DNA of 56,357 nucleotides from a virus (Duplodnaviria > Caudoviricetes), in IMG/VR virus record IMGVR_UViG_3300049982_000330, positions 1-56,357 of that record; one strand, 5' to 3'. Position numbers and translations under genes: made by a program. Below, piece by piece: positions 17,516 to 46,226 of the stretch. The stretch's first letter is position 1; the number at the start of each line of letters is the position of its first letter. The notes beneath the pieces were generated by a model. That model saw only the letters and a program-made list of their open reading frames with translations, searched no databases and had not been told where the DNA came from.

Positions 17516-17557
17516 CGCACCCCTCCTACGTGCTCAGGGCCGCGGAGCGCGAACGCC

Positions 17558-26828: not shown

Positions 26829-27251
26829 TGCTCCTTTGCCGGATCGGTAGTCGGCGTGGTCTGGCCGCCGGCGGGCGGCTGGTCTGGTGGAACGACTGGA
26901 ATGGCCTGCGCGGTAGTGCCAGGCGGCTGGAGCTGGACGGAAACAAGCCCGGTGTGCACCAGGAGGCTTTCGTCCTCGGCCGCGACGGCCGCCTTCGCCG
27001 AGTCGGAGGTGAAGCCCTCCCGGACCAGACCGGTGATCGTCCGGGCTCGGATCTCAAAGATCTCGGCGGCGTCCTTGCGGTCCTCCTGCAGGAACCGGAT
27101 GTCGCGGTCGTCGTACCAGAGCTCCGCGTTGTCCGGCACCGCGACCAGGGGCGCGAGTGCCCCGGCCGCGCCGCGCCACAAAGACCTCAGCGTGCCGTCC
27201 GCGAAGCGCCTGCGGGCCATCCCGTAGTTGCCCGCGTTCAGCGAGCTGCCG
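26825..27251 (-). pseudogene. Portal protein, 3' fragment (restorable by excision)
   Basis: GSSLNAGNYGMARRRFADGT continues the 5' fragment in frame; its stop is coupled to the protease start. Confidence 0.9.
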
Positions 27252-27275
27252 TCAAGTCCGCGCTAAGGCGAAGCT
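27230..27275. other. att junction at the portal 3' side (core CGG 27249-27251, minus strand)
   Basis: Portal coding begins abruptly after ...TAG CGC GGA CTT GAC GG. Confidence 0.8.
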
Positions 27276-27380
27276 CTACTTTCATCGATCTCCAGGCGGA
27301 CGGCCAGACGGCCGCGAGCCGTGTCCCGGCAGCGCGATGCCCTCGCCAACCGGTACTTGGCGAGGGCATCGGTCATTCTC

Positions 27381-27617
27381 TTACGGGTGGCGCGGCCTGT
27401 GGGGCTCTGCGTCGTCTACCAGGCGCGGCGGCCCGGCTGGGCCGAACAGCAGCCGCGCGAGCTTCCGGGCCTGCTCGGGAGTCGGCAGCGGGGCTTTCGC
27501 CGTTTCTCGCTCGATGTGCTCGGCCGTCTCGTCGTCCAGCTCGAACAGGCGCTGTATCTCCCGCATCTCAGGCGACAGCTCGGGGGACGGCGCGGCAGCC
27601 CTGCTGCTCTTGGTCAC
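27381..27617 (-). CDS. Small protein with RDF-like C-terminal motif
   Basis: HIERETAKAPLPTPEQARKLARLL resembles the 40404-40646 product. Confidence 0.6.
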   Translation of the reverse strand: MTKSSRAAAPSPELSPEMREIQRLFELDDETAEHIERETAKAPLPTPEQARKLARLLFGPAGPPRLVDDAEPHRPRHP

Positions 27618-27790
27618 TTCTTCTTCCCCTTCTCGGGCAACGCGGCGCCTTCCTCATCCACGTACCAGCGCCACATTTCGACCGTCACCTTGGACACGTC
27701 TCCATCGGGCGCTTGCTCGCGAACCTTCTTCACCAGTTCCTCGGATGCCCCCCGGATCCCAACGAGCTTGTGCCGGTGCTGGCTCGGCAT
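27614..27790 (-). CDS. 58-aa ribbon-helix-helix-like regulator (absent from the ORF track)
   Basis: MPSQHRHKLVGIRGASEELVKKVREQAPDGDVSKVTVEMWRWYVDEEGAALPEKGKKK; GAGGGAGG RBS; GTGA coupling. Confidence 0.7.
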   Translation of the reverse strand: MPSQHRHKLVGIRGASEELVKKVREQAPDGDVSKVTVEMWRWYVDEEGAALPEKGKKK

Positions 27791-27809
27791 CGGGCCGCCC
27801 TCCCTCTTA

Positions 27810-27855
27810 GGTGGTTGACCACCCGACAGTAACAGGTCTAAGGTGGTTAACCACC
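27810..27855. promoter_or_regulatory. Pair of palindromic operators in a divergent promoter region
   Basis: GGTGGTTGACCACC (27810) and GGTGGTTAACCACC (27842), 32 bp apart. Confidence 0.75.
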
Positions 27856-27949
27856 CCCTCTTTTGAGGGAGAGGCGCCTAACCGCAAGACGGCCCCCGCC
27901 AGCGATTGCAGCGCACGGCGAGGGCCTTGATCGGAAGCAGGTCCGACCC

Positions 27950-28297
27950 ATGTCCAACCCAATCACATGCCCGACTTGGTGCGAGCGCGAGCACCCCACC
28001 AGCTACCTCGCCCATGAGCGCTACGTCGCCGAGCTCAACGCCGACGGCGGCGAGCTCGTCATCGAGGTCACCGTGAATCAGCACGTGCAGCCCGGCCGTG
28101 TCGACGCGCCCGTCATGCGCCTGTTCGCCCACCAGGGCGGCGACCACGGAGAGACCACGATCCTGGACTTGGCCGCCGACCAGGCCGCCACCCTCGGCCG
28201 GATCATCGCGCTGCTGGCGTCGCACGGCCCGGGGCACCGGTTCGGCGTGGCCCTGACCGACGCCGCCGCGGTGATCCTCGCGGGCGGTGGGCGGTGA
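27950..28297 (+). CDS. CPxWC-motif protein (DUF6907-like)
   Basis: TCPTWCEREH...H and DLAADQAATLG pattern. Confidence 0.65.
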   Translation: MSNPITCPTWCEREHPTSYLAHERYVAELNADGGELVIEVTVNQHVQPGRVDAPVMRLFAHQGGDHGETTILDLAADQAATLGRIIALLASHGPGHRFGVALTDAAAVILAGGGR

Positions 28298-28536
28298 AGG
28301 CCGAGCGCCGACCGGCCGCCACGGTCACGATCAGCGTCGAGGACCTCGACCGGCTGACGGCGGCAGCTACCACGCTGTTCGGCATCGCCAGCGAGCTCCG
28401 CATCCGCTGGGAGAACGCCGAGATCCAGGCCGGGGGCGTCCCGGACGGCATCAATCCCGCATGGGTCGCGCAGAAGCGCGCCGCCGACGGCGACCAGCTG
28501 GCCGCCCGCCGGGCCTCGAAGGGTGGCGTGCGATGA
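28294..28536 (+). CDS. Hypothetical protein
   Basis: Stop/start coupling on both sides. Confidence 0.6.
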   Translation: MKAERRPAATVTISVEDLDRLTAAATTLFGIASELRIRWENAEIQAGGVPDGINPAWVAQKRAADGDQLAARRASKGGVR

Positions 28537-28697
28537 CCACGGCCGAAGAGATCGCGTTCGTCGACGCCATGACGGCCGACGAGCTGCGCCAGGCGCTGAT
28601 GCACCTGGCCGGGTACTCACCCGACGGGTTCGCCGACGCCATCGCCAAGGTCCAGCGTGACCGCGCCTGGCGTGCCGAGATCGAGGTGTCGAAGTGA
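28533..28697 (+). CDS. Small hypothetical protein
   Basis: ATGA coupling; MTTAEEIAFVDAM... Confidence 0.55.
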   Translation: MTTAEEIAFVDAMTADELRQALMHLAGYSPDGFADAIAKVQRDRAWRAEIEVSK

Positions 28698-29464
28698 AGG
28701 GGGCCCGTGCGATCCGCTGGTCGACGGCGGCCGTCGTGGTGGCGCTCGCGGCCGTCGCCGCCGTGGTGTCCTACCGGCACGCCCTGGAGGTGATCCGCGC
28801 CCACGGCGAGAGCGGGTTCACCGCCTACCTGGTGCCGCTCACGGTCGACGGCCTGATCTACGCGTCATCCATGGTGCTGCTCGACGCCTCCCGGCGCGGC
28901 GTCCGTGTGCCGCCTCTGGCGCGGTGGACGCTCGCTCTCGGCATCGTGGCCACCCTCGCCGCCAACGTGGCTCACGGGCTCGCTCACGGCGTCGTCGGGG
29001 CGGTCGTGGCCGCGTGGCCCGCCGCCGCGTTGGTGCTGTCGTATGAACTGCTGATGGCGCTGATCCGGGGTGCGGCCGTACGGGCGACTGTCCAGAATTG
29101 GACAGTCGAGGCGGTAGCCGCACCCGTGGCCCGGGTGCCGGTGAGTCGCGAGGTGTACGACTGGGCAGCCGAGCGGGACCTGTTCGACTCCGTCGCGGCC
29201 GATGCACCCGGCGCTGTACCCGCCGACGGGCCGCCCGCCGTGGACGTACCCGGCGATGCACCCGAGGCCGACCCCGATCCCGAGTGCGCACCCGGCGACG
29301 TACCCGAGCGCGATCCGCTGTACCCGGAGGCCGTTCGCTTGTACCTCGGCGACGTCGCGAGCGGCGCCGTCCCGCCGCTGCGAGCCATCAAGGCCGACCT
29401 CGGTATAGGCCAAACCAAGGCGCAACAGGTGCAGGGCTATCTACGGACGCTCGCCGCGAGCTGA
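28694..29464 (+). CDS. DUF2637-like membrane protein with C-terminal HTH
   Basis: AAVVSYRH, PLTVDGLI, TLAANVAH, VAAWPAAAL; C-terminal PPLRAIKADLGIGQTKAQQV. Confidence 0.8.
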   Translation: MKGARAIRWSTAAVVVALAAVAAVVSYRHALEVIRAHGESGFTAYLVPLTVDGLIYASSMVLLDASRRGVRVPPLARWTLALGIVATLAANVAHGLAHGVVGAVVAAWPAAALVLSYELLMALIRGAAVRATVQNWTVEAVAAPVARVPVSREVYDWAAERDLFDSVAADAPGAVPADGPPAVDVPGDAPEADPDPECAPGDVPERDPLYPEAVRLYLGDVASGAVPPLRAIKADLGIGQTKAQQVQGYLRTLAAS

Positions 29465-29473
29465 ACGAGTCGA

Positions 29474-29511
29474 GCAGAATGCCCCGCCGGTCGACCGGCG
29501 GGGCATTCTGC
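29474..29511. terminator. Perfect 38-bp palindrome / terminator
   Basis: GCAGAATGCCCCGCCGGTCGACCGGCGGGGCATTCTGC. Confidence 0.75.
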
Positions 29512-29539
29512 GTTCCGGGGTAAGGAGTCTTCAAGGCTC

Positions 29540-29594
29540 TTGACAGCACTCCGGAGGAGGCTGACGATGCGCTGGTCCGAGAAATCTCCGGAAA
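29540..29594 (+). promoter_or_regulatory. Putative promoter and operator
   Basis: TTGACA-N17-GACGAT followed by AGAAATCTCCGGAAA, a motif repeated at 31195. Confidence 0.55.
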
Positions 29595-29616
29595 CACTCA
29601 GGAGAGGGAAAGATCG

Positions 29617-29832
29617 ATGCGCCTACAGTTCCTTGGCAAGGAAACCGACGGCGGTAACTCCCCTACGCTGTGGGACACCGACGGCGACGAGTACGTGATC
29701 CAGGGCTTTACGGTGACCGACGCCGAGGCCCTCGCGGACATCGGCGCCGTTCCTGATGGGGAGCTGATAATCCGCATCCCCAAGCGCCTGATGGACCACC
29801 TGCCGAAGGAGACACATGGACCTGCTGACTAA
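29617..29832 (+). CDS. Small protein of the DUF6879/XRE cassette
   Basis: MRLQFLGK...SPTLW...YVIQG pattern; RBS. Confidence 0.8.
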   Translation: MRLQFLGKETDGGNSPTLWDTDGDEYVIQGFTVTDAEALADIGAVPDGELIIRIPKRLMDHLPKETHGPAD

Positions 29833-30343
29833 GGAGGAATTCCAGCAGAGATTCCACGGGTCGAAGCGGGCCTTCCACCTCGAACTACGGGACGCCTACA
29901 ACGTCACCGCCGAGGATGAGCCGTTCCGGAAGTGGCAGGCCGGCGAGTACGACGACCACGCGTGGCGGCGCCCGTGGCAGGCATTCATTCGCCAGGTGAC
30001 AGGCGCCGGCTGCGCGATGCAGCGGGTCAGGGTCGTCACCGTGCCCCATGCGCGCTACACGCGATGGCTGCTCGACATCGCCGGCGACAACGTTGAGGCC
30101 GGGGAGGACATCCGATACCTGCCACGACACCTCGCCGCGGACATCGACTTCCCCCCGGAGGACTGCTGGTTGTTCGATGACGACCAGCTGGTGCTCAGCG
30201 TGTTCCCGGGCGACGGCCGGGCCGGTGCGTTCGTCGCCGAGACCGATCCCGACCTGATACGCAGGTACCTGATCGCCCGCGATCTGGTGTGGGAGCGCGC
30301 GATCCCGCACGCCGTTTATGTTCACGCGCAGCGCCGCGCCTGA
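29816..30343 (+). CDS. DUF6879-like protein
   Basis: AFHLELRDAY, RVRVV, NVEAGEDIRYLPR and DCWLFDD motifs. Confidence 0.85.
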   Translation: MDLLTKEEFQQRFHGSKRAFHLELRDAYNVTAEDEPFRKWQAGEYDDHAWRRPWQAFIRQVTGAGCAMQRVRVVTVPHARYTRWLLDIAGDNVEAGEDIRYLPRHLAADIDFPPEDCWLFDDDQLVLSVFPGDGRAGAFVAETDPDLIRRYLIARDLVWERAIPHAVYVHAQRRA

Positions 30344-30358
30344 TTCGCCGCTTCGACC

Positions 30359-31195
30359 GTGTCACAGCCGACCGACCAGGCCCGCCAGGCGCTAGGTTCC
30401 CGCCTCCGTGAGATGCGCCAGGACGCGCGGCTCACGGGCCGGGAGCTCGCCGCGCGAGCCGGTTGGCGGCCCCCGAAGGTGTCCAAGCTGGAGCACGGGC
30501 AGCAGAACGCCAGCGAGGAGGACATCCGTACCTGGTGCCAGGTGTGCGGCGCGCGGGACCAGATCCCTGAGCTGATCGCCACGGTGCGCGCGATCGAAGC
30601 GCAGTACATGGAATGGCGACGACAGATGCGGGGAGGTCAACGCCGCGTCCAGAGCGTGCTCCGCGCCGAGGATCTCTCCACCCGCCTGTATCGGATCTTC
30701 GAGCCGTTCCACATCCCCGGCTTCCTCCAGACCCGCGATTACACCCGGGTCATCATGGCGCGCAGTGCCCATTTCTACGAGGCACCGAACGACCTGGAAG
30801 CCGCTGTAGCGGCCCGTCTGGGGCGTCAGACCATTCTTCGAATGGGTGACCGCCGGTTCCACATCGTCGTGGCCGAGCAGGCCCTGTACACCCAAGTGGG
30901 CGGCCCTGAGGTGATGCGCGGCCAGCTCGCCCACCTCCTGGACGAGATGGCCGCGCTGCCCCGGCTGCGTCTCGGCGTCGTTCCCCGCGCCGCCGACTAC
31001 GAGCTCGGCCCCCACGCGGGTTACTGGATCTTCGACGCGCGGCTGGTCATGACGGAGACGGTCACGGCCGTTCTGAACGTCACCCAGCCGCGAGAGGTCG
31101 CCATGTATGAGCGGCACTTCGACGGAATAGCGGGCCTCGCGGTGTACGGCCAGGCGGCCGCTGCCCGAATTACGGCAGCGAGCGAAGCTCTCTAA
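30359..31195 (+). CDS. XRE HTH plus DUF5753-type regulator
   Basis: LREMRQDARLTGRELA...VSKLEHG; IPGFLQT.DY; EQAL. Confidence 0.9.
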   Translation: MSQPTDQARQALGSRLREMRQDARLTGRELAARAGWRPPKVSKLEHGQQNASEEDIRTWCQVCGARDQIPELIATVRAIEAQYMEWRRQMRGGQRRVQSVLRAEDLSTRLYRIFEPFHIPGFLQTRDYTRVIMARSAHFYEAPNDLEAAVAARLGRQTILRMGDRRFHIVVAEQALYTQVGGPEVMRGQLAHLLDEMAALPRLRLGVVPRAADYELGPHAGYWIFDARLVMTETVTAVLNVTQPREVAMYERHFDGIAGLAVYGQAAAARITAASEAL

Positions 31196-31321
31196 GAAAT
31201 CTCAGGAAATCTCGTTGAGTGTGACGCGTGTGCCTGCCGACGATCGGGGGGACGAAAGGCGGGCCCGCCTGGCGCTGATGACGACCAGACGAGCCCTTGA
31301 TCGGACGCGGAGGTCCGACCC

Positions 31322-31531
31322 ATGGCACACCTTAAAGCCACCTCAGTGGACGCGCCCCCAGGATGGCGGGTGTTCCGAAGCGATAAGGGCCGCTTCTGGG
31401 CCACCCGCGAGGAGCCCTACCCCGAGCCCGAGCAAACCGCGTGGCGGACCGTGGACGCCGACGACTTGACCACGCTGTGCCGGACCATCGCCGAGCAGGA
31501 GAGCCGAGCCGAGCTGGGAGCGTCATCATGA
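31322..31531 (+). CDS. Small hypothetical protein
   Basis: GGAGG RBS; GWRVFRSDKGRFWATR...RTVDADD. Confidence 0.7.
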   Translation: MAHLKATSVDAPPGWRVFRSDKGRFWATREEPYPEPEQTAWRTVDADDLTTLCRTIAEQESRAELGASS

Positions 31532-31809
31532 GCGAGTCCGATCTCCACGTCGTGGACACCGACCAGATCAGGGAACAGAAGATCGCCGCCCTGGCCCAGA
31601 CCTACCCGGCGTGGCAGATCCGGTTCGTCGGATCCACCATCGCGGGCCCCATGGGCTGGTGGGCCATGCGGCACGCTCCGCTGACCGAGGCCCAGCGCGC
31701 GGCCGGCCTGGTGCCGTCCATCGCCCGCGGCGACATCGTGTCCCTGGTGATGGAACTCGACGTCCAGGATCAGATCGCCCATCGGACCGGCTACGCGGCC
31801 CGCCCATGA
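31528..31809 (+). CDS. Hypothetical protein
   Basis: ATGA coupling; YPAWQI...WWAMR. Confidence 0.65.
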   Translation: MSESDLHVVDTDQIREQKIAALAQTYPAWQIRFVGSTIAGPMGWWAMRHAPLTEAQRAAGLVPSIARGDIVSLVMELDVQDQIAHRTGYAARP

Positions 31810-32159
31810 GCAGGCCCGGCGGTCGTCCCGCTTCCCAGGTGGAACCCGCCGGGCCGCCGCCGTGCCCAGCGTGGTGCGACTTCCAGCACTCCGAGACTGA
31901 GCCGAGCTGGCGCTGGTACTGGCGCACACATCTCGGCATGGGTCGTACGGTGCCGCTGACGGCGATGCCTTCGGTGGCCAGCCACATCCCGATGCTGATG
32001 TACGACCTCATCCAGCAGCCCGACGGCGAGCCGATGATCCGGATGCGCCGCGACGGCCGTCCGCTGGTGCGGCTCACCTCCGGCGAGGCTCAGCGCCTCG
32101 CCATGGGCCTGGTCGCGCTCGTCGACCAGGCCCGCGCGGAGGCCGAGGGCAGGGCATGA
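31806..32159 (+). CDS. Second CPxWC-motif protein
   Basis: CPAWCDFQH...H; LTSGEAQRLA. Confidence 0.6.
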   Translation: MSRPGGRPASQVEPAGPPPCPAWCDFQHSETEPSWRWYWRTHLGMGRTVPLTAMPSVASHIPMLMYDLIQQPDGEPMIRMRRDGRPLVRLTSGEAQRLAMGLVALVDQARAEAEGRA

Positions 32160-32265
32160 GCGCGCATGCCAGCACCCCGGTTCAAGGGACCTGCTCGTCT
32201 CGTGGCGGCCGAACGCTCGGCCCGCATGGACGGCCCCGGGCGCGGCCGGGCCGCCATGGTCGCGG

Positions 32266-32574
32266 TCATGGCGGGGGCGGGCCGTGGTGCTCGGTGAAGA
32301 AGCGGAGCTCCTCCCACGCCTCCGGGTCCAGCGCGGCGGCCTCGTTGAGCACCTCAGCGAGCAGGCGGCGGGGCAGGCCCGACTCTTCCCACACCGCCCC
32401 GCACGAGCACCGTACGTAGCTCGGATCGTCGCCTGTCTCGTCGAGCAGCACCGACACGGTGAGGATGTGCCGCTCACCGCAGGCCGGACAGCCGATGGGG
32501 CCGTTCAGCCCGATGGCCCCGTTCACCAGGTGCAGGGTGACCTGGGTGATCTGGTGTTCTGCGTGCCCGCTCAC
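32266..32574 (-). CDS. Zinc-ribbon protein coupled to the satellite TMP
   Basis: CPACG...CSCG; GTGA overlap. Confidence 0.65.
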   Translation of the reverse strand: MSGHAEHQITQVTLHLVNGAIGLNGPIGCPACGERHILTVSVLLDETGDDPSYVRCSCGAVWEESGLPRRLLAEVLNEAAALDPEAWEELRFFTEHHGPPPP

Positions 32575-35500
32575 CTCGAACCTCGTTCGACTTGGCGCAG
32601 CCCCTCGCGGATCTGCATGAGGATCTCCCGCCCCGCCACGGTGTGGTTCTCGAAGTTGAGCTTGGCCCCGTTGATGTTGAGCACGAAGTCTCCCTGAATG
32701 GTCGGGCCGCCTCCACGGCCGCTACTTGACGAGGTGCTCACGCTGGCGCCGGACACACTCAACGTCGACCCGCCGGAGGTCGCGAGCGCCGGCCCGCCCC
32801 CGCCGGCGAACCCGAACGTCGGTTGTATGTCCATGGTGGCCATGTCGGCCATGCCGCGAACGGCGTCGAGCACGTGCCCGTACCCGCCTTGGATGCCGCT
32901 GGCCAGGCCCATGGGGATGAACTTGCCGATCGCGGCGAACACCTTGGACGGCGAGGCGATGCCGAGGATCTTCTTGGCCCAGTCGGGCAGCAGGGCGCCG
33001 AACAGGTTCCCGATCTGCTGCTTGAACCAGTTCCACATGCCGACGATGCCGTTCCACAGCCCCGTGATCATGTTGTGGCCAAGCGTGCCGAACATGCCGG
33101 CGAGGTCGCCGATCGCGCCGAGGATCAACCCGGGCAAGCCCTTGAGCCAGGTCACCAGGTCGTTGAACTTGCTGATGGCCCAGTCCTTGGCCTTGCCGAA
33201 CCACTCGGCGAACATGGCGGGCAGGCCCGAGATCCACTTGACGATCCCGTTGACCAGGTCGGGAATGATGCTGTGGCCGATCAACGTGTCGTACAACCAG
33301 GTGAACCAGCCGACAATGGTTTTGATCTTGTCGGCGATGTCGGCGGCGAATGTCGTGATGGCCGGGATGACCACCCCAAGGATCACGCCGACGAGCTTCA
33401 CGAACATGATTTGGACCGGCGCCCACAGCCTGATCAACTCGGCGACCATCGGCAGCATCGGCGTCATCGCGGTGATGAGCTGGACGGCGGCGCCTGCCAG
33501 CTGCACCACGACCGGCGCCAACACCTTGATCCACTCGGCCATGACCGGCAGCAGCGCCTTCACGAGCTCACCCACCACCGGCAGGATCGGCGTGAGCGCT
33601 GTGATCAGCGACAGGAACGCGCCGATCAAGCCAGGCAGCAAGGGGGCGAGCTCCTGCAGATACTTCACCAGCGCCAACCCGATGGTTTGCGCGAGCTCCG
33701 ACAGCACCGGCAGCAGCGGCACGACGGCCTGCACCAGCAGCGAGAGCCCGGTCACGAAGTTCGTCGCGATCAATCCGGCGATCTGCGCGATGATCGGGAT
33801 CAGCGGGGTGATAGCCGGGACCAGCCCGGACACCAGTTGGGTGATCAGTGCGGCGATCTGCGGGAGCAACGGTGCGAGCGCCGGAACCAGGGCGTTGATC
33901 AACGTCGCGGCCAAGCCGAAGATCAGCGGCACGATCGGCGACAACGCGACCACGGCCTGCGCAAACGCCCCGACGAGCAGCTGAATCGACGGCAGAATCG
34001 CGATGATCCCCGACGCCAGGCTCGTGGCGATCAGCAGCACCAGCTGGCCGAGCACCGGCAGCAGCGGGGCGAACGCGGGCACCAGCTGGCCGATGACCGT
34101 TGCCGCCAGCCCGATGATCAGCGGGATGATCGGGGCGAGGGCGGTCAGCATCGAGGCGAACCCGCCGACGAGGACCTGAATCGGGCCCAACATCGCCTGC
34201 ATCCCGGCGGCCAGGCTGGAGGCGATCAGCGTGGCCAGCTGGGAGATCACGGGCAGCAGCGGGGACAGGGACTGCAGGATCTCGCCGAAGACGCGGACCA
34301 TCAGCTGGATCGACGGCAGCATCGCCTGTACGCCTGCAGCAAGCGTGGTGGCGATCAAGGCCGCGAGCTGGCCGACCACCGGTAGCAGAGGCGCGATGGC
34401 TGCGAGGATCCCGCCGAGCGCTGCTCCGATCGGGGCGAGCGCCGGCGCGAGCGACGCGAAACCCGTAGCCACCGCGCCGATGAACGCCTGCAAGCCGGGC
34501 AGGATCGCTGCGATGGCGGGACCGATGGCGGCGATCAGGGGCTGCACGGACGCGAAAGCGGCGCCGATGGCCTGACCGAGGGGAAGCATCGCGGGCGCCA
34601 GGGCGGCGACCGCCTGGCCGATGCCGGCGAACACCGCGATCATCCCCGGGCCGATCGCCGCGACGGCGGGACCGAGCGCGGTGATCGCCGTGGCGAGCAC
34701 CGGGCCGACCATTTGAGCCAGCTGTGCGATGACGGGGGCGAGCTGGGCGATGACGCCCACAACGGCGGTGATCACCGGCAGGAACGATTTGGCGATGGCG
34801 CTCAGCGCGGTGAACACCGCGACCAGCGTTGACTGGCCCTGCGCTGATTTGAGGAACTGGTTCATCCCGTCGAGCAGCTGGCCGATGACGCCGAGTGCGC
34901 TCGCGCCAGAGGCCTGCATGGCGGTGAAGACCGACCGCACGATGCCGCCGACGTCGCCGACGATCGAGCCGAGCTGCTTGAAGACCAGCAGGGCGTTGTC
35001 CATCCATTGCAACGCCTGACCGCTCGCCGCGGCGTTGTACATGAACAGGCCGAACCGCTGCGCCACGGCGGCGATCCCGGGCGCCAGGGCGGCCAGCCAT
35101 CCGGCGCCGACCACACCGAGGTCTCTGAAGCCGTTGAGCAGGGGCGTCAGGGCGGGGATGAAGGCGGTCACCGCGTCATGCAGCGAGGTGAACACGCTGC
35201 GGATCGCCCAGATCGACTCCGATGACCGGGCGAATTCGAGGACCTTCAGCGCGGCCTGGCCGAACTGGCCGGCCACGCTCTCCACCCCGTCGGTCAGGGC
35301 GTTGAGGACGGGCAGCAGCGACCACATCTGGCCGACCAGCGGCCCGAACAGGGCATCCTGAGCGGCGAACTTGAGGCCCTGGAAAGCGGGCGCCATTTGG
35401 AAGAGCTCGTACGCCACCTGGCCGGCGGATGCGCCCAGCCCGGCGGCGGCCGTCATGAACTTGTCGAAATCGCCGGAGATGGCGGCCGCGAAAGCGTCCC

Positions 35501-35975
35501 CGACGCCGCTCAATGCGAGCTTCAGGGTGCCCAGCGCGGCGGCGCCGAGCAGTATCCCTCCCGGCAGAGCGGCGAGGATCCCCACAGCGGGCGCCAGCGC
35601 GGACACCAGGCCGATCGCACCTGAGCCGGCCGTGGCCATCGCAGCCGACAGGACGGCCATCTTCGCCGCGGCGGTGACCAGCGAGACGCCCACACTGACC
35701 AGCGAGCCCACGAAGCTCGCGACGTGGGAGGTTGCCTGGGAGACAGCCGTACTCAGGAGGGCGAACACGGCGCCGATGCCGCTGGAGCCACTGCCGAGAC
35801 GGAGGAAGCCCGCGTTCATCGAGCTCGAGATGCCGTCGAGGCTGCGGAAGCTGCGCTCGGTCCTGTCCGCCTGCCGCGCGACCTTCTCCAGGTCTCGGTT
35901 CACCTTGCCAATCCCGCGATCGGTGTCAGCCATCACCCCAAGGCGGATCATGAGGTTCTTGATTGAGTTCGCCAT
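32571..35975 (-). CDS. Tape measure protein (satellite copy, 1134 aa)
   Basis: True start ATG 35975 with AGAAAGGG RBS; collinear with the helper TMP. Confidence 0.93.
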   Translation of the reverse strand: MANSIKNLMIRLGVMADTDRGIGKVNRDLEKVARQADRTERSFRSLDGISSSMNAGFLRLGSGSSGIGAVFALLSTAVSQATSHVASFVGSLVSVGVSLVTAAAKMAVLSAAMATAGSGAIGLVSALAPAVGILAALPGGILLGAAALGTLKLALSGVGDAFAAAISGDFDKFMTAAAGLGASAGQVAYELFQMAPAFQGLKFAAQDALFGPLVGQMWSLLPVLNALTDGVESVAGQFGQAALKVLEFARSSESIWAIRSVFTSLHDAVTAFIPALTPLLNGFRDLGVVGAGWLAALAPGIAAVAQRFGLFMYNAAASGQALQWMDNALLVFKQLGSIVGDVGGIVRSVFTAMQASGASALGVIGQLLDGMNQFLKSAQGQSTLVAVFTALSAIAKSFLPVITAVVGVIAQLAPVIAQLAQMVGPVLATAITALGPAVAAIGPGMIAVFAGIGQAVAALAPAMLPLGQAIGAAFASVQPLIAAIGPAIAAILPGLQAFIGAVATGFASLAPALAPIGAALGGILAAIAPLLPVVGQLAALIATTLAAGVQAMLPSIQLMVRVFGEILQSLSPLLPVISQLATLIASSLAAGMQAMLGPIQVLVGGFASMLTALAPIIPLIIGLAATVIGQLVPAFAPLLPVLGQLVLLIATSLASGIIAILPSIQLLVGAFAQAVVALSPIVPLIFGLAATLINALVPALAPLLPQIAALITQLVSGLVPAITPLIPIIAQIAGLIATNFVTGLSLLVQAVVPLLPVLSELAQTIGLALVKYLQELAPLLPGLIGAFLSLITALTPILPVVGELVKALLPVMAEWIKVLAPVVVQLAGAAVQLITAMTPMLPMVAELIRLWAPVQIMFVKLVGVILGVVIPAITTFAADIADKIKTIVGWFTWLYDTLIGHSIIPDLVNGIVKWISGLPAMFAEWFGKAKDWAISKFNDLVTWLKGLPGLILGAIGDLAGMFGTLGHNMITGLWNGIVGMWNWFKQQIGNLFGALLPDWAKKILGIASPSKVFAAIGKFIPMGLASGIQGGYGHVLDAVRGMADMATMDIQPTFGFAGGGGPALATSGGSTLSVSGASVSTSSSSGRGGGPTIQGDFVLNINGAKLNFENHTVAGREILMQIREGLRQVERGSR
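33775..35642. repeat. About 1.9-kb direct repeat of 10074-11941 (offset 23,701)
   Basis: Identical shadow ORFs at constant offset; scattered substitutions mostly toward the high-coordinate end. Confidence 0.9.
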
Positions 35976-35977
35976 CG

Positions 35978-36223
35978 TCACCCTTTCTCTGGTTCTCGTC
36001 GGGCCACCTGCCGGCTCGCTCGGGCGCACTCCTGCGAGCACGTGCGCCGACGGCGGCCACCCGACCAGGTGGCCTCGAAGGTCTGGCCGCACACCGAGCA
36101 CGTCGCCTCGTGCCGCGCGCGACGGCACGGCCGGCAGACCCGCAACCCGGCGGGCAGCGAGGTGCTGGTCGACCAGAGCAGGACGCCGCACATCGCGCAC
36201 GGGACATCGGGCCGCCGAGCCAT
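35978..36223 (-). CDS. Multi-CxxC zinc-finger protein
   Basis: CAMC, CRPC, CSVC, CSQEC; GGAGG RBS before ATG 36223. Confidence 0.65.
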   Translation of the reverse strand: MARRPDVPCAMCGVLLWSTSTSLPAGLRVCRPCRRARHEATCSVCGQTFEATWSGGRRRRTCSQECARASRQVARREPEKG

Positions 36224-36301
36224 CCCGTCACCTCCCTGTCGCCGACTACGCCGGGTGACCAGCACGCGGTCACTCTGTGCCATCTCTTCGCCCTCACTCT
36301 G

Positions 36302-36436
36302 AGTGATGATCTTGAGGCCGATTACTCTGTGAAGTGGGGAGGGAAAAGGGCGCTAAGGGCGCGGGTCCCCCGTGATCGTTGATCTACGTCGCGAGGGTGC
36401 CCCCTCCGGCGCTATGACCTGCGAAAACGTCGCCGC
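36302..36436. repeat. Satellite copy of the putative cos/packaging site
   Basis: 132/135 identical to 46227-46361, same orientation, non-coding. Confidence 0.85.
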
Positions 36437-36964
36437 ATTGTCGCTGAGGGTCGATTGCATGCTGTTTATATGTTTGATCTTCGTCACTGAGCGTGTTTGG
36501 CGCAGTGTCACGTAACGTCATCACTTACGTCATCGCTTACGTGTTGATCTTCACGTTGTTTGCGTTGTGTGATCGGTGACTGGCTGGCCACCGCGCCATC
36601 CGCACCGCTCGGCCTCGGCTCGCGCGCATCAGCACGACGTGACGCTGTCGCGCCAGGTATGCACAGATGATCACGACTGCGAGACGCGTGAGCAGCGAGC
36701 GTCGAGCGGCGACTGTGGAAGCACGATCGCTGTGACGTACATCGTCGGCTGATGCATCGAGCTGCGTGTGATCGCTGTGTGCGAGCCATGGTGGCTGTGG
36801 TGGATAGGTGGCAGAACCGATGCTGATCAGCTCGGCGGGCGCGGTGTTCGAGCGTGACCGGCAGCGCCTGTGCCGCGTGCGGCTCGGCCGCCAGGAGGAC
36901 AGGGCCCACCGAGTGTGCCGGGCCCCCAAAGGTCGCCACCGCTCATTGGCGAATGGGCCCCGGG

Positions 36965-37495
36965 TCATGCCGTCTCCCGTGCGGCGGCCCGACGCTCGAG
37001 GTGGCACCGCTCCTCAATCCGGATCAGGGTCCGGCGTGCTGCCCCGAGGCGCTCGCCCGCCGCGCTCCGCGCCCTGTAGAGCCGACTCTCCGCAGCTTCC
37101 AGGACGTGACGCCGTGCCTGTGTGGGTTCCCTCGCGGGGTAGTCCGCCGGGGAGAGCATTGCGCCCCTCGGCCCCGTGTTCGCCCCCGCGGCCGTGGCCT
37201 CGATCAGCGCCCGTTGGTGCGCCATATCGGCCATGGTGTAGCTCGCGAGCGCCTCGTCGACGGCCTGCTGCGCCTCGGCTATCTGCGGCGCGAACCGGTC
37301 GATCACCTCCTGCTCGGCCTCGCCGATCGGGTCCGGCGCCGGACCGAGCAGCTTGCTCGGGTCGATGACCAACCCGTCGCGCCAGCAGAACCAGCCCGAG
37401 GGCATCGGGCGGCACCGCTTGGCCCCATATCCGACCGGCCTCCCGCAGCGATGGCACCGCTCGCTCGCGGCCTTGTTCTCGGCTGACAGCCTCAC
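36965..37495 (-). CDS. Hypothetical protein (Cys motif plus helical region)
   Basis: GTGA coupling to the upstream gene. Confidence 0.55.
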   Translation of the reverse strand: MRLSAENKAASERCHRCGRPVGYGAKRCRPMPSGWFCWRDGLVIDPSKLLGPAPDPIGEAEQEVIDRFAPQIAEAQQAVDEALASYTMADMAHQRALIEATAAGANTGPRGAMLSPADYPAREPTQARRHVLEAAESRLYRARSAAGERLGAARRTLIRIEERCHLERRAAARETA

Positions 37496-38496
37496 CTCGT
37501 CGCCTCCAGCCAGTAGGTGGCGCGCGCCATTTCCTCGTAGGCGCGCGCGGCATCCTCGTCGCCGCCGGCCATGTGCCTGACCTCGTGCCCGGTGATCGCG
37601 TCCAGCTCAGCCGCCTGGCACAGCGCGTCGGCGTTCAACCAGACTTCACCCGCCCAGGACACCGCCTTGCCGAGCAGCTGGTCACTCGGCCAGCCGAAGC
37701 CCGGCCGGGCGGACTCGCCGTACATCTCCAGGTAGTCGCGTTCGCCGTCGGTCTCGCTGCGGAACCAGCGCAGCCGAGGCCGCGGGGCGACCTTCAACCG
37801 CTCGCAGTGCTTGGTAAGCGCCGAGTCGACGATGACGCGTTTCCAGGCCGGAACCTCATCCGCCGCGAGTTCGACGTACCAGCTCGACACGTGCCGCTCC
37901 GCTTCCATCAGGACCGTGCGCGCGTGCTCGCGTTCCTCAAGATCCCGAAGGTTCCGCTTCACGATTTCGCAGGTGTTGACGACGGCGAGCCGCTCCATCC
38001 ACGCCCGGGTCTCGGCGTCGAGTTCGCCGGGCGGCCTGTTGTGCTTGACGGCGAGGGTCCGCGTGCCCACGCCAGCCCCGCGAAGGACTGGGCTGACCTC
38101 GAACACCTGTACCTCTTCGATGAAGCGCACCCGCTGGCCGGCGAACTCGCCGAACGACTCCTTGGTCACGTTGTAGCCGTAGCTCCACTCCTGGAGGCCG
38201 CCGAGCTGCTTGACGACGGTGAAGGTGTCGCGACCGGCCATGGTGTCGAGGAAGAACCGGCCTTCCAGGATCGCCTCATTGGCGGTCTGCCGGATGGTGC
38301 CCAGCCCGACCGGAAGCTCGCCGTCCCAGGTCCTGTGGCCGTAGCTGGAAATCACGACGGGCGCACCGTCGGCGAACGCTCCCGGCCGTGTCACATCCCG
38401 ATCGGAGTCGATCGCGTTGAACGTCGAGAAGATGGCCCGCACTTCGCCCTTGGACTCGTCCTTGATCTCCAGCAGGAGACTCTTGGTGTCCACCAT
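37492..38496 (-). CDS. Prohead protease paralog fused to an HEXXH domain
   Basis: First ~150 aa align with the helper protease; C-terminal ITGHEVRHMAG. Confidence 0.85.
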   Translation of the reverse strand: MVDTKSLLLEIKDESKGEVRAIFSTFNAIDSDRDVTRPGAFADGAPVVISSYGHRTWDGELPVGLGTIRQTANEAILEGRFFLDTMAGRDTFTVVKQLGGLQEWSYGYNVTKESFGEFAGQRVRFIEEVQVFEVSPVLRGAGVGTRTLAVKHNRPPGELDAETRAWMERLAVVNTCEIVKRNLRDLEEREHARTVLMEAERHVSSWYVELAADEVPAWKRVIVDSALTKHCERLKVAPRPRLRWFRSETDGERDYLEMYGESARPGFGWPSDQLLGKAVSWAGEVWLNADALCQAAELDAITGHEVRHMAGGDEDAARAYEEMARATYWLEATR

Positions 38497-38886
38497 TCAC
38501 CCCTCCCTTCTGCGCGCGGCCTCGGCCGCGACGGCGTCGCGCTCGAAGACCCACCGGCCCCGCTCCAGGCGTCCGCCGAGTTCGGCGGCGAGCTGGCGCA
38601 CGCGGCGCGCGGTGAGTCCGAGCAGCGCCGCGACCTGATCGGCGCTCAGAGGCGAGGATCGCCCGATTTCCGCGATCGGCGTTTCCGAGCTTCCGTTCGG
38701 CAGGTCAGGGCGTTTCCGCGCCCGTCCGGCTCGCTCCAGGTCACCGATCGCGGCCAGCAGCTCGGCACGCGCGTGCGGCGCCACCCGATCGAAGTAGCCC
38801 TTCCGCGCCAGGTCGCGAAGGGCGACGCCGGCGAGCTGCGCGATCTGCCCGGACAGGACCGCGGCGTCCTGGACGTAGGCCACCAA
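38497..38886 (-). CDS. HTH DNA-binding protein (excisionase/AlpA-like C-terminus)
   Basis: LSADQVAALLGLTARRVRQLA...GRWVF. Confidence 0.75.
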   Translation of the reverse strand: MVAYVQDAAVLSGQIAQLAGVALRDLARKGYFDRVAPHARAELLAAIGDLERAGRARKRPDLPNGSSETPIAEIGRSSPLSADQVAALLGLTARRVRQLAAELGGRLERGRWVFERDAVAAEAARRREG

Positions 38887-38887
38887 C

Positions 38888-39055
38888 TCACCTGCCGTCC
38901 GCGGCTCGGACGGGCCAGCGCTCGCTAAAACAAAGGACGTGCATCCAGTCGCCTCGGGCGCCGATGCGGCAGATCCGTTCCCCGATGTGGATCGCGCGAC
39001 GACACAGCGGACAACGGCTCTCCCTGCGCGCCTTCCGCGCGTGGGTGGCGATCAT
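38888..39055 (-). CDS. Small zinc-finger protein
   Basis: CPLC...IHIGERI...WMHVLC. Confidence 0.6.
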   Translation of the reverse strand: MIATHARKARRESRCPLCRRAIHIGERICRIGARGDWMHVLCFSERWPVRAADGR

Positions 39056-39888
39056 GCCGACCTCGCCATGGCCCGGCACTGCGGGCACTGCGGCAGACCG
39101 GTGTCCGGGCGCGCCTGGTCGCCGCCGGGTGTGCCGTGCTCGCACGGCGGCATCTGACCGATCGAGGCCAACCACACGCCGATGTCGGACCGGCCGCGCG
39201 CCGTACGTACCCGCACGAGCACCGGGGCCAGGTCCCCGTGATGGGCCATGGTGCGCAGGAGGCCGGGAAGCGATCGGACCTTGTTCTCAGCCTCGATCGT
39301 CTTGATGACGCTCTCTGCCTCCTCCTCGGTGGCGCCCGTGGCGGCCGTCACGATCCGTACGGCTCGCGCCCGCGCGGATGAGGAGTTCTTGAGGATCTCT
39401 GAGGAGATGGGTCCCCCGCTTGGGGGAGCTTCAGCACTTGAAGCTCTCCCGCTTGGGGGAGCTTCGGGACCAGGCGGGGGAGCTTCAGCACTCGAAGGTC
39501 TCCCGGATGGGGGAGCTTCAAGCTCTCCCGCTTGGGGGAGCTTCAGCGCCGGGCATTCGCCGGGCCTCGGAATGTAGAACTCCATGGCATGGCCGTTGCA
39601 GGCGAAGAGCATGCGCCCCCGGTCGTCAGTGACCGCCTGGCCCTGCTTGTCGCGGACCGGCACGCGGAGCTCGATGCCGTTCGCTCCGAGTTTGCCCAGC
39701 ACCTTGCCGAGCTGCTTGAGGTCTGCAAAGCCCGTCCGGCGGATCACCGTCGCGATCACCGCTCCGCCGTACGCGCGGCGAGTCCGCTCGTTGGCCTGGT
39801 CGGCGATCTCCAGGGCCACCAGCCGCTCGCCGGAGGACAGGCCAGGCGGCAGATGCTCGGCGAGCCAGCGCCGCAGCTCGTAACCCAT
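39052..39888 (-). CDS. Putative replication initiator
   Basis: LSSGERLVALEIADQAN wHTH-like N-terminus, internal iterons, C-terminal CEH...CPQC; start ATG 39888. Confidence 0.7.
   Translation of the reverse strand: MGYELRRWLAEHLPPGLSSGERLVALEIADQANERTRRAYGGAVIATVIRRTGFADLKQLGKVLGKLGANGIELRVPVRDKQGQAVTDDRGRMLFACNGHAMEFYIPRPGECPALKLPQAGELEAPPSGRPSSAEAPPPGPEAPPSGRASSAEAPPSGGPISSEILKNSSSARARAVRIVTAATGATEEEAESVIKTIEAENKVRSLPGLLRTMAHHGDLAPVLVRVRTARGRSDIGVWLASIGQMPPCEHGTPGGDQARPDTGLPQCPQCRAMARSA
39422..39544. repeat. Five GGGGGAGCTTC direct repeats (putative ori iterons)
   Basis: Copies at 39422, 39455, 39476, 39509 and 39534. Confidence 0.8.
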
Positions 39889-40169
39889 CAGGTCTCGCCG
39901 GCTTCCTGCTCTTCGCGCTCCCGGCGAAGCGCCTCGGCACTGATCTCCACCAGGGCCCGGCGCCGCGGCGAGGTGTTCATCTGGTCGCCGTGCATCGCGG
40001 GCGGCAGTCGGCCGTTCCACATATCCGGCGTACTGAAGAACAGCGGCGCCTGCGTGAGCCGGGCGCGCAGGTCGACGTACGCGAGCACCCGGGCCCGGCG
40101 CGCGGCGCACTCAGCTCGCTCATCGGCAGCGGCCTTCCTCAGCAGCGCTGCCCACTCCTGGCCCTTCAC
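39888..40169 (-). CDS. Hypothetical protein
   Basis: Coupled within the operon. Confidence 0.6.
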   Translation of the reverse strand: MKGQEWAALLRKAAADERAECAARRARVLAYVDLRARLTQAPLFFSTPDMWNGRLPPAMHGDQMNTSPRRRALVEISAEALRREREEQEAGET

Positions 40170-40414
40170 GGCGTCACGCCCGCGAGCGTGCCGCGCTGCC
40201 GGGCGATCTGACCCAGCTCCTCGAGTTGGGTCAAGCGGTCAAGGACGCGTTGCCGATCAGCTGGCCGCAACGACCGCAGCGCGGCGGCAGCAGACCGCCC
40301 ACAGGAGTTTGCCCGCGCTCTGTCGGACCGGCGCTGTACGCTGACACCATCGTCGTTAACGCGTTTCGAGGCCGCTCCTGCCCGGGGGCGGCCTTCGGCG
40401 TTCTCAGGCCACAT
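40166..40414 (-). CDS. Hypothetical protein
   Basis: GGAGG RBS; coupled to the next gene. Confidence 0.45.
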   Translation of the reverse strand: MWPENAEGRPRAGAASKRVNDDGVSVQRRSDRARANSCGRSAAAALRSLRPADRQRVLDRLTQLEELGQIARQRGTLAGVTP

Positions 40415-40646
40415 GGCGCACCTCCCCGCCCGCGTCCTGGTGGCCGAGGAGCACCTGAGCGAGGCGCACGCGTTGCTCGGGAGTCGGACTCGGTTCTGAA
40501 CCGATGAGCCGCTGGATGTAGTCCTCTGCGGCTAGGACCTTGAGGTCCCGGCGCTGGGTTTCAACCAGCTCAAGCCGATCCGGATGATGGCGCCTGGTGG
40601 CTGCGTGCTGTGCCCGTAAGCGGCGGCGCTCAGGAGAAAGAGACAT
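40404..40646 (-). CDS. Putative recombination directionality factor (phiRv1 Rv1584c-like)
   Basis: RRDLKVLAAEDYIQRLIGSEPSPTPEQRVRLAQVLL matches my recollection of the phiRv1 RDF pattern; downstream of the serine integrase. Confidence 0.65.
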   Translation of the reverse strand: MSLSPERRRLRAQHAATRRHHPDRLELVETQRRDLKVLAAEDYIQRLIGSEPSPTPEQRVRLAQVLLGHQDAGGEVRHVA

Positions 40647-40795
40647 GGATCCCCCAGAAGGCAAATGCCTTGTAAGGGGCTCCTCATACGTGGCCGTCTC
40701 GGGAGCCGGTTTCGCGTCGCCGGGTAGACCAGGCCCCACGTAGGCCCCGCGACACGCCCTGCCGTGCACAGGACAGTAGCAAGTCACCCAGGCGT

Positions 40796-41095
40796 TCACA
40801 TGCCATATCGGCTAGGAGGCTGGAGAGATTCAGTCGGACCGTAACTCTCGTCCAGATTGGAATGATCAACACGAGAAAGCCCCGGACCTTGGTCCAGGGC
40901 TTCGTCTCTGCACTGAGCACAATGGCACTGCGGCGGAGGATCGACGGGCAGGCCGGCGGCTATCTTCTGCCGTCGCCGTTCCAGCGCCACGGCGAGCATG
41001 CGCACCGTCCGATGCACCCTCGCCGTCATGCCAGCGGAGTTTTCCTCGGGATCGTGGGTCTCAGACATGGCTGGAAATATCCTTTCCTTGCGCAT
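40796..41095 (-). CDS. Hypothetical protein
   Basis: ORF with CHCAQC; weak support. Confidence 0.35.
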   Translation of the reverse strand: MRKERIFPAMSETHDPEENSAGMTARVHRTVRMLAVALERRRQKIAAGLPVDPPPQCHCAQCRDEALDQGPGLSRVDHSNLDESYGPTESLQPPSRYGM

Positions 41096-41098
41096 AGC

Positions 41099-41131
41099 AA
41101 AGAGCCGCGAGGGATATGCTCGCGGCTCTTT
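41099..41131 (-). terminator. Terminator downstream of the integrase
   Basis: 13-bp stem AAAGAGCCGCGAG/CTCGCGGCTCTTT. Confidence 0.75.
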
Positions 41132-41154
41132 CGCTGGGTTTAGGTGCAGCGCGC

Positions 41155-42849
41155 CTACCGGCGCCAGGTGATTGTCATTCGGTCAGTGTTCGCCGTTGGG
41201 CGACGATTCTTCCCCGGGCCGGGCTCGTACCCCAGTTCTTGGATGGCGGCTCTCACACGCTTCTCCAGTTCGGGTGACTTGGCCTTTCCCAGGATTACCA
41301 GACTGACGAACCCCTGACTGACACCAGCGTGCTCGGCAACGTCCTTCTGCGTCACGCGCTTGGTGGAGTGAAGGGACCGATTCTCGTAGTGGATCGTGAC
41401 CTTTGCGATCCAGTCATCGACGAATTTCCGTTGCTCGTCGAGATGCATCTCCGGCCACAAGGTCCGAAGCTCCTCGGGGTCGATGTCCCCGACCGGTGCA
41501 GGCAGCTCGGCGAGCTCGCGTTCGAACGTCTGAGCCTCCTTCATCAGCCCGTCATTCATGACGTTGAACTGCTCCGTGGTGAGCTTGCGCCCGTTCCACA
41601 TCTGAGCCAGCTCACCGCGCCGAAGGTCGAGGGCATCGAGTTTCTTCACCAGGTCTTCGCGGCGCGCGAAAAAACTGTCCTGTGCGAGCAGTCGGGCGGC
41701 GTTGTACTCCTTCAGCTTCTTGAAAAGGTGAACGGCTACGTGTCCTTCTGCCGCCCTGGCGTCGATGGTCGTCCGGCCACATCCGCCGGTCACCTTCGTG
41801 TCGCAGGCGTAGTAGGCGTAGTCGCCGCTGGGCCGCGCCTGCATTGGCTTGTCACAGACCCCGCAGAACGCCCGGTAACCGGTCAGCAGGTAGGCACGCC
41901 CCGACCTGCGTCGCGTCTTCTTCCGCGAACCGATGACGGCGCACAGCGCCCGCCATGTCACCTCGTCAAGGATGGGGGGCCAAGTCGCTTTACCCACGAT
42001 CTCGCCTCGGTGGACACGCAGCCCGGCAACGCACGGCGCGGTCAGGAAGTCGGCAACGCTCGTGGCAACGAACCGGCCGCCGTGCTTGCCTCGCAGGCCC
42101 CTGCTGTTAAGCCACGCGGCTACGTGCGCCAGGCCCCATCCGTTCAGGATGCGGTTGGCGCACTCCGTGATGATCTCGGCTTCCTCGGGCATGATCTCGG
42201 CGCTCTTGCGTCCCTGCTCATCGAGGACGGCCCGCCCGCCCGCAGGCCGCGGATTGTCGGCCTTCCACTGCCGCATCTCCTGGCCGCGGATCCTGGCCTG
42301 ATGGCGGCGCTCCTGCCACTCCTGGAGGCGGCTCTGCTCCTCCGGAGTCAGGATCACCTGCCGGTAGCCGTAGCCGAGACGGCCAGGCGGGCGCCCCTGT
42401 GAGGCAAGTTCGCTTTTTTTATCGAGGATGCGCTTCCGGAGCTGCTTGACCTCGTGCGCGCCGAGAACCGCATTGATCCCCGCGAAGACGCCGTCAACGT
42501 CGATGACGCCGTTCCGCTTGGTGTGAACCTCCGTGACACCAGCCTGCGCGAGGTCGGCCGCCAAGCTGAACCACTCGACCTCGCGGCGGGTGAGCCGGTT
42601 CTGCTCGACGGACCACAGGTGAGCAGACTCGCCGCGCCGGATCGCGTCCCGCATCTTCTCGAACTCCGGGCGAAAGACATCGTCCTTGGCCGCCGACAAG
42701 TCGTTGTCGGCGAAGACCTTGATCGGCATGTCGGGCCACCGGTCCCCGGCGTACTCGCGGCCCCACTTCTCCTGTGCCTGCACCCCCTCGGCGCGTCCTT
42801 GCTGGTCGGCGCTGATCCGGCAGTAGATGAAGACGTATCCCGTGCTCAT
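41155..42849 (-). CDS. Large serine recombinase (integrase) with LacI-type HTH insert
   Basis: YCRIS catalytic motif, DNDLSA, RPEF, NRLTR; zinc ribbon CGVC...YYAC...C; coiled coil. Confidence 0.95.
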   Translation of the reverse strand: MSTGYVFIYCRISADQQGRAEGVQAQEKWGREYAGDRWPDMPIKVFADNDLSAAKDDVFRPEFEKMRDAIRRGESAHLWSVEQNRLTRREVEWFSLAADLAQAGVTEVHTKRNGVIDVDGVFAGINAVLGAHEVKQLRKRILDKKSELASQGRPPGRLGYGYRQVILTPEEQSRLQEWQERRHQARIRGQEMRQWKADNPRPAGGRAVLDEQGRKSAEIMPEEAEIITECANRILNGWGLAHVAAWLNSRGLRGKHGGRFVATSVADFLTAPCVAGLRVHRGEIVGKATWPPILDEVTWRALCAVIGSRKKTRRRSGRAYLLTGYRAFCGVCDKPMQARPSGDYAYYACDTKVTGGCGRTTIDARAAEGHVAVHLFKKLKEYNAARLLAQDSFFARREDLVKKLDALDLRRGELAQMWNGRKLTTEQFNVMNDGLMKEAQTFERELAELPAPVGDIDPEELRTLWPEMHLDEQRKFVDDWIAKVTIHYENRSLHSTKRVTQKDVAEHAGVSQGFVSLVILGKAKSPELEKRVRAAIQELGYEPGPGKNRRPTANTDRMTITWRR

Positions 42850-44330: not shown

Positions 44331-44340
44331 CTGCTCTCCC

Positions 44341-46184: not shown

Positions 46185-46226
46185 TCCGACCCCCTCACGC
46201 AGCGTGATTCCAGGATGGTCACTCCA

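Follow-up and report, generated by a model that had tools for sequence, protein, structure and literature searches.

Two tape measure protein (TMP) genes, one of them carried by an inserted satellite-like element, were found in the IMG/VR provirus record IMGVR_UViG_3300049982_000330, a stretch of 56,357 bases from a soil metagenome that was analysed at its full length and is called the window here. TMP1 (1131 aa, TTG start; 8843–12238, minus strand) belongs to the structural operon of a temperate siphovirus-type prophage, referred to as the helper, and TMP2 (1134 aa, ATG start; 32571–35975, minus strand) lies in a 15,631-bp element at 27249–42879 that splits the helper's portal gene. TMP2 is a mosaic, with a middle nearly identical in DNA to that of TMP1 and two ends that are homologous and diverged. 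The reading that we favour, tentatively, is that TMP2 may be a working structural gene that is built into helper-made tails, in which the converted ruler stays helper-like and the ends carry a satellite-specific function. This reading is based on the intact frame, the homology over the whole open reading frame (ORF), the kept family motifs, repeated exchange with TMP1, the packing of the gene among its neighbours, a helper-like upstream region, the satellite hallmarks of the element, and the precedent of the PLE and EPIP satellites.

TMP2 was identified through its ORF, its PHROG matches and its alignment to TMP1. It matches phrog_305 (E 3.4e-78) and phrog_6090 (E 1.3e-71), while TMP1 matches phrog_305 (E 5.7e-84). 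PHROG matches of TMP2 are named tape measure in 16 of 17 cases, and all 25 cultured-phage tblastn matches listed, out of 77, fall on annotated tape measure genes; neither protein has a Pfam match at E<=0.01. TMP1 also has the expected gene order, lying between the tail chaperone gene and the distal minor tail genes, which is not true of TMP2. The two proteins share 76–79% amino acid identity overall and differ by 3 residues in net length. A preliminary description of this DNA had given the same lengths, in agreement with the ORFs and translations, and had concluded that tail length would be unchanged, which is consistent with a 3-residue difference under the general TMP-length rule restated in a passage of PMC12987554. 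It had also described a near-identical centre of about 1.9 kb flanked by diverged homologous ends of about 110 aa at the N-terminus and 400 aa at the C-terminus, and the codon alignment bears out each of these parts.

The N-terminal ~110 codons of TMP2 (35646–35975, minus strand) are 54–78% identical to TMP1 in DNA, with a synonymous divergence (dS) of 0.73, a ratio of nonsynonymous to synonymous divergence (omega) of 0.60 and a G+C content at third codon positions (GC3) of 0.89. They are followed by a 5' shoulder of codons 111–257 (35205–35645, minus strand) with 90–99% DNA identity, dS 0.16, a nonsynonymous divergence (dN) of 0.021 and omega 0.13, and then by a perfect tract of 1,391 nt (33814–35204, minus strand) with 0 differences to TMP1 positions 10113–11503. 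Taken together, codons 111–733 (1,869 nt) contain 26 mismatches and are 98.6% identical. From codon 734 on, DNA identity in the codon alignment falls to about 43–79%, and the C-terminal ~413 codons (32574–33813, minus strand) have dS 0.67, omega 0.61 and GC3 0.93. The identical tract ends abruptly on its 3' side and in a graded manner on its 5' side. Since a tract with 0 differences adjoins a shoulder with dS 0.16 and flanks with dS around 0.7, we take the mosaic to mean that two or more exchanges occurred at different times between the TMP loci or their ancestors, the 1,391-nt tract probably being a recent gene conversion and the shoulder an older exchange. In the diverged C-terminus TMP1 and TMP2 are roughly 55% identical, and TMP1 is the closest relative known. 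Because there appear to be at least two tiers of exchange and TMP1 is the closest relative even in the diverged C-terminus, the pattern points to long co-residence of the satellite lineage with the helper lineage and not to a one-off capture. Both rulers additionally contain direct repeats of about 200 nt that are about 70% identical (10160–10695 in TMP1; 33861–34396 in TMP2).

The window derives from a metagenome. Its 1.39-kb repeat is not spanned by any one Logan contig, and the phasing of the two loci therefore depends on the original assembly. Misassembly or over-polishing could in principle have produced the second TMP or made it identical to the first, which we regard as highly improbable on the following grounds. 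The Logan contigs of run X1 probably come from the source sample, and they provide a second assembly but not independent support. They hold 94% of the sampled words and reproduce 26000–28023 and 36407–45999, both element junctions included, with 0 differences at a depth of about 24; the unique TMP2 flanks at 32045–33467 and 35597–36372 are reproduced as well, likewise with 0 differences. A contig within the identical tract has a depth of 43.6 compared with about 24 elsewhere, which is the roughly twofold depth expected of two exact copies per genome and argues against a polishing artefact. Moreover, 25 mismatches survive in the shoulder, where over-polishing would have erased them, and the two portal halves fit exactly. 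No joint that skips the element was found in X1. Only runs X2 and X3 contain joints across which about 15.8 kb is missing. These joints have short sides at low likeness and probably belong to related phages whose portal gene is intact; the two runs give almost no cover of 36005–42674. Two X2 records (12 and 13) and one X3 record (21), all from soil metagenomes of a second study, are 92–94% identical to TMP2, including its specific C-terminus, over 32839–35785. One of these TMP2-type contigs is about 141 nt shorter in the ruler. None of the sequencing runs listed as containing this DNA is an RNA run.

The element that carries TMP2 has discrete ends, with a 2-bp ambiguity at each junction given by a GG common to both junction sequences. 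It separates an N-terminal part of the helper portal (aa 1–331; 42880–43865, minus strand) from a C-terminal part (26825–27248, minus strand), in which the remaining ~137 residues are encoded at 27238–26825. Each piece can be aligned over its full length with the 453-aa portal of a related locus, L003, which is intact. Excision of 27249–42879 in silico gives an open portal frame of 469 aa that is 75% identical to the L003 portal over 438 aa, and across the joint the restored frame reads GLAGSSLNAGNYG, the same as in L003. All 10 related portal loci compared are uninterrupted at the insertion point. A large serine integrase with a C-terminal LacI-type helix-turn-helix (HTH) domain (Pfam E 4.4e-8; 41155–42849, minus strand) starts about 30 nt inside the left junction. 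Because the element splits the portal gene exactly, the helper can make heads only after the element is excised. Elements of serine recombinases that split genes and restore them on excision are familiar from skin in sigK and from phage-regulatory switches. In contrast to skin, the gene split here is a phage portal gene within a prophage and not a host gene. A satellite nested in the portal gene of its helper was not reported in the literature searched, supplements being outside the search.

Besides its own integrase and discrete ends, the element lacks most virion and lysis genes as judged by homology, and would accordingly depend on a helper. Pfam, PHROG and tblastn assigned none of its ORFs to a capsid, portal, terminase, tube or lysis family. 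When 24 helper proteins, within a query set of 41, were compared with the element by tblastn, the ends of the split portal itself gave matches, and otherwise only the protease and TMP1 did. Pfam, PHROG, PADLOC and Atlas revealed no further tail family among the element ORFs, several small ones of which match no family; PADLOC on 10 element proteins returned generic HTH matches only. With respect to packaging, the element has a 194-nt copy of a helper region upstream of the large terminase gene (TerL), and no small terminase was found in it. We consider it well supported that the element is satellite-like and nested in a helper prophage. The preliminary description had proposed a satellite with a mosaic TMP of its own, no other tail gene, and possibly a resident prophage as integration target. 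This framing holds on the alignment and the element bounds: the attachment site attB lies within the portal gene, and the absence of another tail gene stands as far as homology tells.

The copied region lies just ahead of TMP2 and its neighbours. The element copy (36294–36487, minus strand) is 88% identical overall to the helper's own copy upstream of TerL (46219–46411, minus strand) and nearly identical to it within a core of about 135 nt. The helper copy is adjoined by a PHROG 'small terminase'/AAA_33 gene on one side and by TerL on the other, and neither copy is coding. Blocks of this region are kept upstream of TerL in a related phage, L004 (160–480), whose TerL is only 75% identical; this conservation suggests a functional cis site of the phage group. 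Blocks containing GATCA are repeated within the region. One sigma-70-like site was found in 31800–38900; it lies inside 36294–36487 and faces TMP2, a weak signal given 1 found for 0.4 expected. The element copy is followed by a 101-aa zinc-ribbon ORF, TMP2 and a 102-aa ORF, and it may be a candidate late promoter, a packaging site, or both. In either role it would couple the element to the late programme of the helper. Satellites of the P4 type mimic cis sites of their helpers, and the likeness here is that a non-coding site next to terminase genes has been copied.

Several properties of TMP2 are those of a working gene. All of its 1134 codons are read without an internal stop or a frameshift, and GC3 in the diverged parts (0.89–0.93) is like that of helper genes. 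It starts 2 nt after the zinc-ribbon ORF (35978–36283, minus strand; weak phrog_1271 match at E 2.9e-6, GC3 0.81, zinc-ribbon-like clusters only in Atlas), and its stop overlaps the 102-aa ORF (32266–32574, minus strand) by 4 nt. The main C-terminal motif blocks of the TMP family are kept, with 72 of 92 outgroup-conserved columns retained. The leading alternative is that TMP2 was captured from a helper-type phage by recombination and is a passenger or relic with no function of its own, which we judge somewhat unlikely. Intactness is explained under such a capture if it was recent, if the middle was refreshed by conversion and if stop codons are gained slowly in G+C-rich sequence. It accounts less readily for the homology with TMP1, which spans aa 3–1128 of TMP1, nearly the whole ORF, and ends there, with no remnants of the flanking helper genes (chaperone and next tail gene) in the element. 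The length of the open frame with its host-like GC3, the tight coupling of TMP2 to its neighbour ORFs behind a helper-like upstream region, and the long co-residence implied by at least two exchange tiers also speak against a mere passenger. The 102-aa ORF was considered as a fragment of the helper's next tail gene, and this was ruled out since the two are unrelated by comparison.

A number of observations weigh against a working TMP2, and most of them speak for the passenger alternative. TMP1 retains 82 of the 92 outgroup-conserved columns compared with 72 for TMP2. Over the C-terminal 400 aa, TMP2 has more lineage-specific changes than TMP1 in 14 of 14 outgroup comparisons, with a chi-square above 3.84 in 9 of them. 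The 14 outgroup TMPs were picked by their likeness to TMP2, and the rate asymmetry is thus not an effect of their selection; in the N-terminal part the same comparison gave small and mixed counts. Omega is about 0.6 in both diverged parts, which suits relaxed constraint as well as specialisation, and the faster change of the TMP2 C-terminus can likewise mean either. TMP1 is the nearest relative even in the diverged ends; outside it, the best of 407 matches to the TMP2 C-terminus in a set of 5.8 billion proteins is 45% identical. The element is without a detectable chaperone or hub partner gene, unlike the PLEs, and no TMP follows the protease-like module in a related island, L019. The TMP2-type C-terminal segments at 92–94% in the two runs of the other study could stem from an ordinary donor phage. 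Selection on the ends may be why conversion is confined to the middle; an equally good explanation is neutral, namely that conversion needs flanking homology.

If TMP2 is a working gene, we infer a course of five steps. Upon induction, the serine integrase would excise the element and thereby restore the helper portal gene. The zinc-ribbon ORF, TMP2 and the 102-aa ORF would then be transcribed from the copy of the TerL-upstream region, alongside the helper late genes. Helper chaperone and tube proteins would handle TMP2 to give chimeric tails, as in PLE satellites. Repeated gene conversion would keep the central ruler helper-like, and with it the same tail length and the same fit to chaperone and tube. 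Finally, the two diverged ends (~413 aa at the C-terminus and ~110 aa at the N-terminus) would give satellite particles another entry or assembly property. In siphophage tails the C-terminal part of the TMP is at the tip and leaves first at infection, whereas the N-terminal part is head-proximal.

One special form of the last step is that selection holds the TMP2 ends different so that they pass an injection block aimed at the helper TMP, with the ruler converted for acceptance by chaperone and tube. Integration needs the portal gene of a resident or co-infecting helper, and the satellite DNA must therefore enter cells that carry the helper together with its exclusion functions. We give such an entry key a low probability; if true, it would mean that satellite and helper co-evolve within one gene. 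About equally doubtful is a poison subunit: TMP2 would join TMP1 in mixed bundles by way of the 464-aa middle in which they do not differ, and the altered ends of TMP2 would make these bundles defective, lowering the helper titre. The identical central segment would permit such mixed assembly, a step that is itself conjectural, and the faster divergence of the C-terminus would suit it. Tail interference by targeting of the TMP is documented, in passages of PMC12987554, for Rta of PLE11. On the other side, the main family motifs are kept in TMP2 and the literature searched gave no precedent for a poison TMP. The element also has no other recognisable tail gene, and it would itself need tails made by the helper if its spread, like that of the satellites known to date, is in tailed particles (PMC12987554). 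Altered ejection, evasion of exclusion and poisoning of helper tails, the three functions put forward in the preliminary description, are hypotheses that would look alike at the level of sequence.

Satellite-encoded TMPs are already in print for PLEs (Nature 2026) and EPIPs (bioRxiv, December 2025), and the present case is no new category. The preliminary description had pointed to the literature on TMP-bearing satellites, and the parts of PMC12987554 and PMC12822802 considered here, the latter on an actinobacterial system, lower its novelty. The comparisons below are by description. In PLE satellites of the Vibrio cholerae phage ICP1, according to passages of PMC12987554, TMPs replace that of ICP1 in PLE virions to give chimeric tails, and deletion of the PLE TMP lowers transduction by 96–99.9%; how the PLE TMP is chosen over the helper's is given there as unknown. 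The element resembles PLEs as described in that text in carrying its own TMP without a full tail module (PMC12987554). PLE TMPs are about 20% identical to that of ICP1 and 95 aa shorter, with tails 10 nm shorter (PMC12987554, passages), whereas TMP2 is 76–79% identical to the helper's, shares a 1.39-kb identical tract with it and has the same length. The same passages have the PLE TMP come with a chaperone and a hub gene, neither of which tblastn with helper proteins, PHROG or Pfam revealed in the element, and they name a lytic myovirus as the PLE helper, in contrast to the temperate siphovirus-type prophage with the satellite inside it here (PMC12987554).

EPIPs, in the portions of PMC12822802 considered, are 11-kb satellites of the Mycolicibacterium aichiense prophage HerbertWM with a serine integrase, an HTH protein, a scaffold, a capsid protein and a TMP. 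An actinobacterial host, a serine integrase, an HTH protein, a TMP and the lack of tail-tube and lysis genes are shared with the present element. EPIPs differ from it in encoding a small terminase, a capsid protein and head-tail adaptors, for which no counterpart was found in the 15.6-kb element, and in having almost no similarity to the helper (~8.5% coverage) and tails that are variable and longer than the helper's (same portions of PMC12822802). EPIPs were obtained in the form of free particles, and these induce the prophage (PMC12822802, same portions). Putative tmp genes in PLE-like elements and cf-PICIs are HHpred predictions in the legend of Extended Data Fig. 10 of PMC12987554, and the passages of that paper considered describe no relation of these genes to a helper TMP. 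Mycobacterial PICI candidates are presented in passages of PMC10654092 that make no mention of a TMP. Titles in the reference list of PMC11364771 connect the HK97 TMP with genome injection and with an exclusion protein of a prophage. Among the 25 matches listed in the tblastn search of the phage collection, only genomes of 38–94 kb occurred. In the literature searched, supplements again being outside the search, no satellite was reported whose TMP is closely paralogous, and in part identical, to that of its helper. What appears distinctive here is a TMP of the same length that is helper-derived, with a converted middle and no partner tail genes, in an element nested in its helper.

Upstream of the zinc-ribbon ORF the element carries a protease-like gene (37492–38496, minus strand) with an S78 prohead-protease N-domain and a C-domain, and an HTH_17 gene (38497–38886, minus strand) that is syntenic with the protease-like gene in island L019. 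The N-domain is 55% identical to the helper protease over about 180 aa. In the C-domain of about 170 aa, the residues H, E, H, G and E are invariant in 10 sequences, in an HExxH..G..E pattern, which makes it a candidate metalloprotease-like domain by motif. The Atlas feature search with the two ORFs flanking TMP2 was uninformative. A 176-aa ORF, several small ORFs without family match and a 681-nt non-coding stretch (62.6% G+C) are also present, and a converging plus-strand arm holds DUF6907, DUF2637, DUF6879 and HTH_31/DUF5753 genes. A perfect 38-nt palindrome lies at 29474–29511, just past the DUF2637 gene.

Relatives of the element were sought through its proteins. At least 13 full-length relatives of the protease-like protein have 41–61% identity (P0124–P0132, P0137, P0139, P0160 and P0186), with P0124–P0126 at 53–61%. 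Of the TMP matches, the 120 listed include none on a contig of the same length as that of P0124, P0125 or P0160, which hints faintly that a TMP2-like gene is absent there. L019, one of two related loci fetched and the sole one with readable context, has a protease-like gene at 4178–5212 (31% identity) in the order primase/helicase, small terminase, HTH_17, protease-like gene, 173-aa ORF and host genes. The serine integrase has about 18 full-length relatives at 43–78% identity (P0244–P0260 at 46–78%), all on metagenome contigs of 1.9–10.7 kb. Viral contigs searched with the integrase, TMP2, a protease-like C-domain alignment (6 of the 10 sequences, realigned) and P0160 gave no useful further copy of the element, and genome contigs searched with TMP2 and with the C-domain alignment gave no match. 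Searching with the integrase and with an integrase-family alignment returned distant relatives, mostly below 40% identity overall; no portal, TMP or protease-like match was found near any of the 19 such loci scanned, nor at L016. Among integrase fragments borne on genomes, the nearest is that of L016 (65% over 79 aa; 9408–10240), which abuts a DUF222 gene beside an ATP synthase operon. Since its target is a DUF222 gene and not a portal gene, related integrases use other targets; the DUF222 target resembles the target family of phiRv1.

The helper that surrounds the element has a long structural operon on the minus strand running from TerL (46122–44341) through to the endolysin (3505–2054). Downstream of the portal, it contains the prohead protease (26828–25731) and the major capsid protein (25723–24461), followed by head-tail genes, the major tail protein (13378–12890), the tail assembly chaperone (12437–12871; phrog_344, E 1.6e-26), which has no tblastn match in the element, then TMP1 and the minor tail genes (8846–7671 and 8241–4870), all on the minus strand. 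The window has a G+C content of about 68% and a CheckV completeness estimate of 84%. Its host is probably in or near the Streptosporangiaceae, because the nearest protein relatives come from Streptosporangium, Nonomuraea and Planomonospora, besides one Nocardioides metagenome-assembled genome. Megablast of both window halves against cultured phages gave no match. In the TerL frame as annotated, the first ~70 codons have no PHROG alignment and are overlapped by a 93-aa ORF at 45903–46184 (phrog_6975, E 1.4e-6); the true TerL start is uncertain. Two helper ORFs of 395 aa and 423 aa contain segments about 74% alike in DNA (14785–15005 with 16872–17092; 15333–15429 with 17429–17523) and may be paralogous structural genes.

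The whole system, an element nested in a portal gene with a helper-like cis site, an HExxH protease-like gene and a TMP, may interest specialists beyond the TMP alone. Its graded mosaic records repeated exchange between a satellite and the helper that houses it. With an identical middle and differing ends, the TMP pair is a natural domain swap at constant tail length, from which one would learn which end governs incorporation, fit at the tip or entry.

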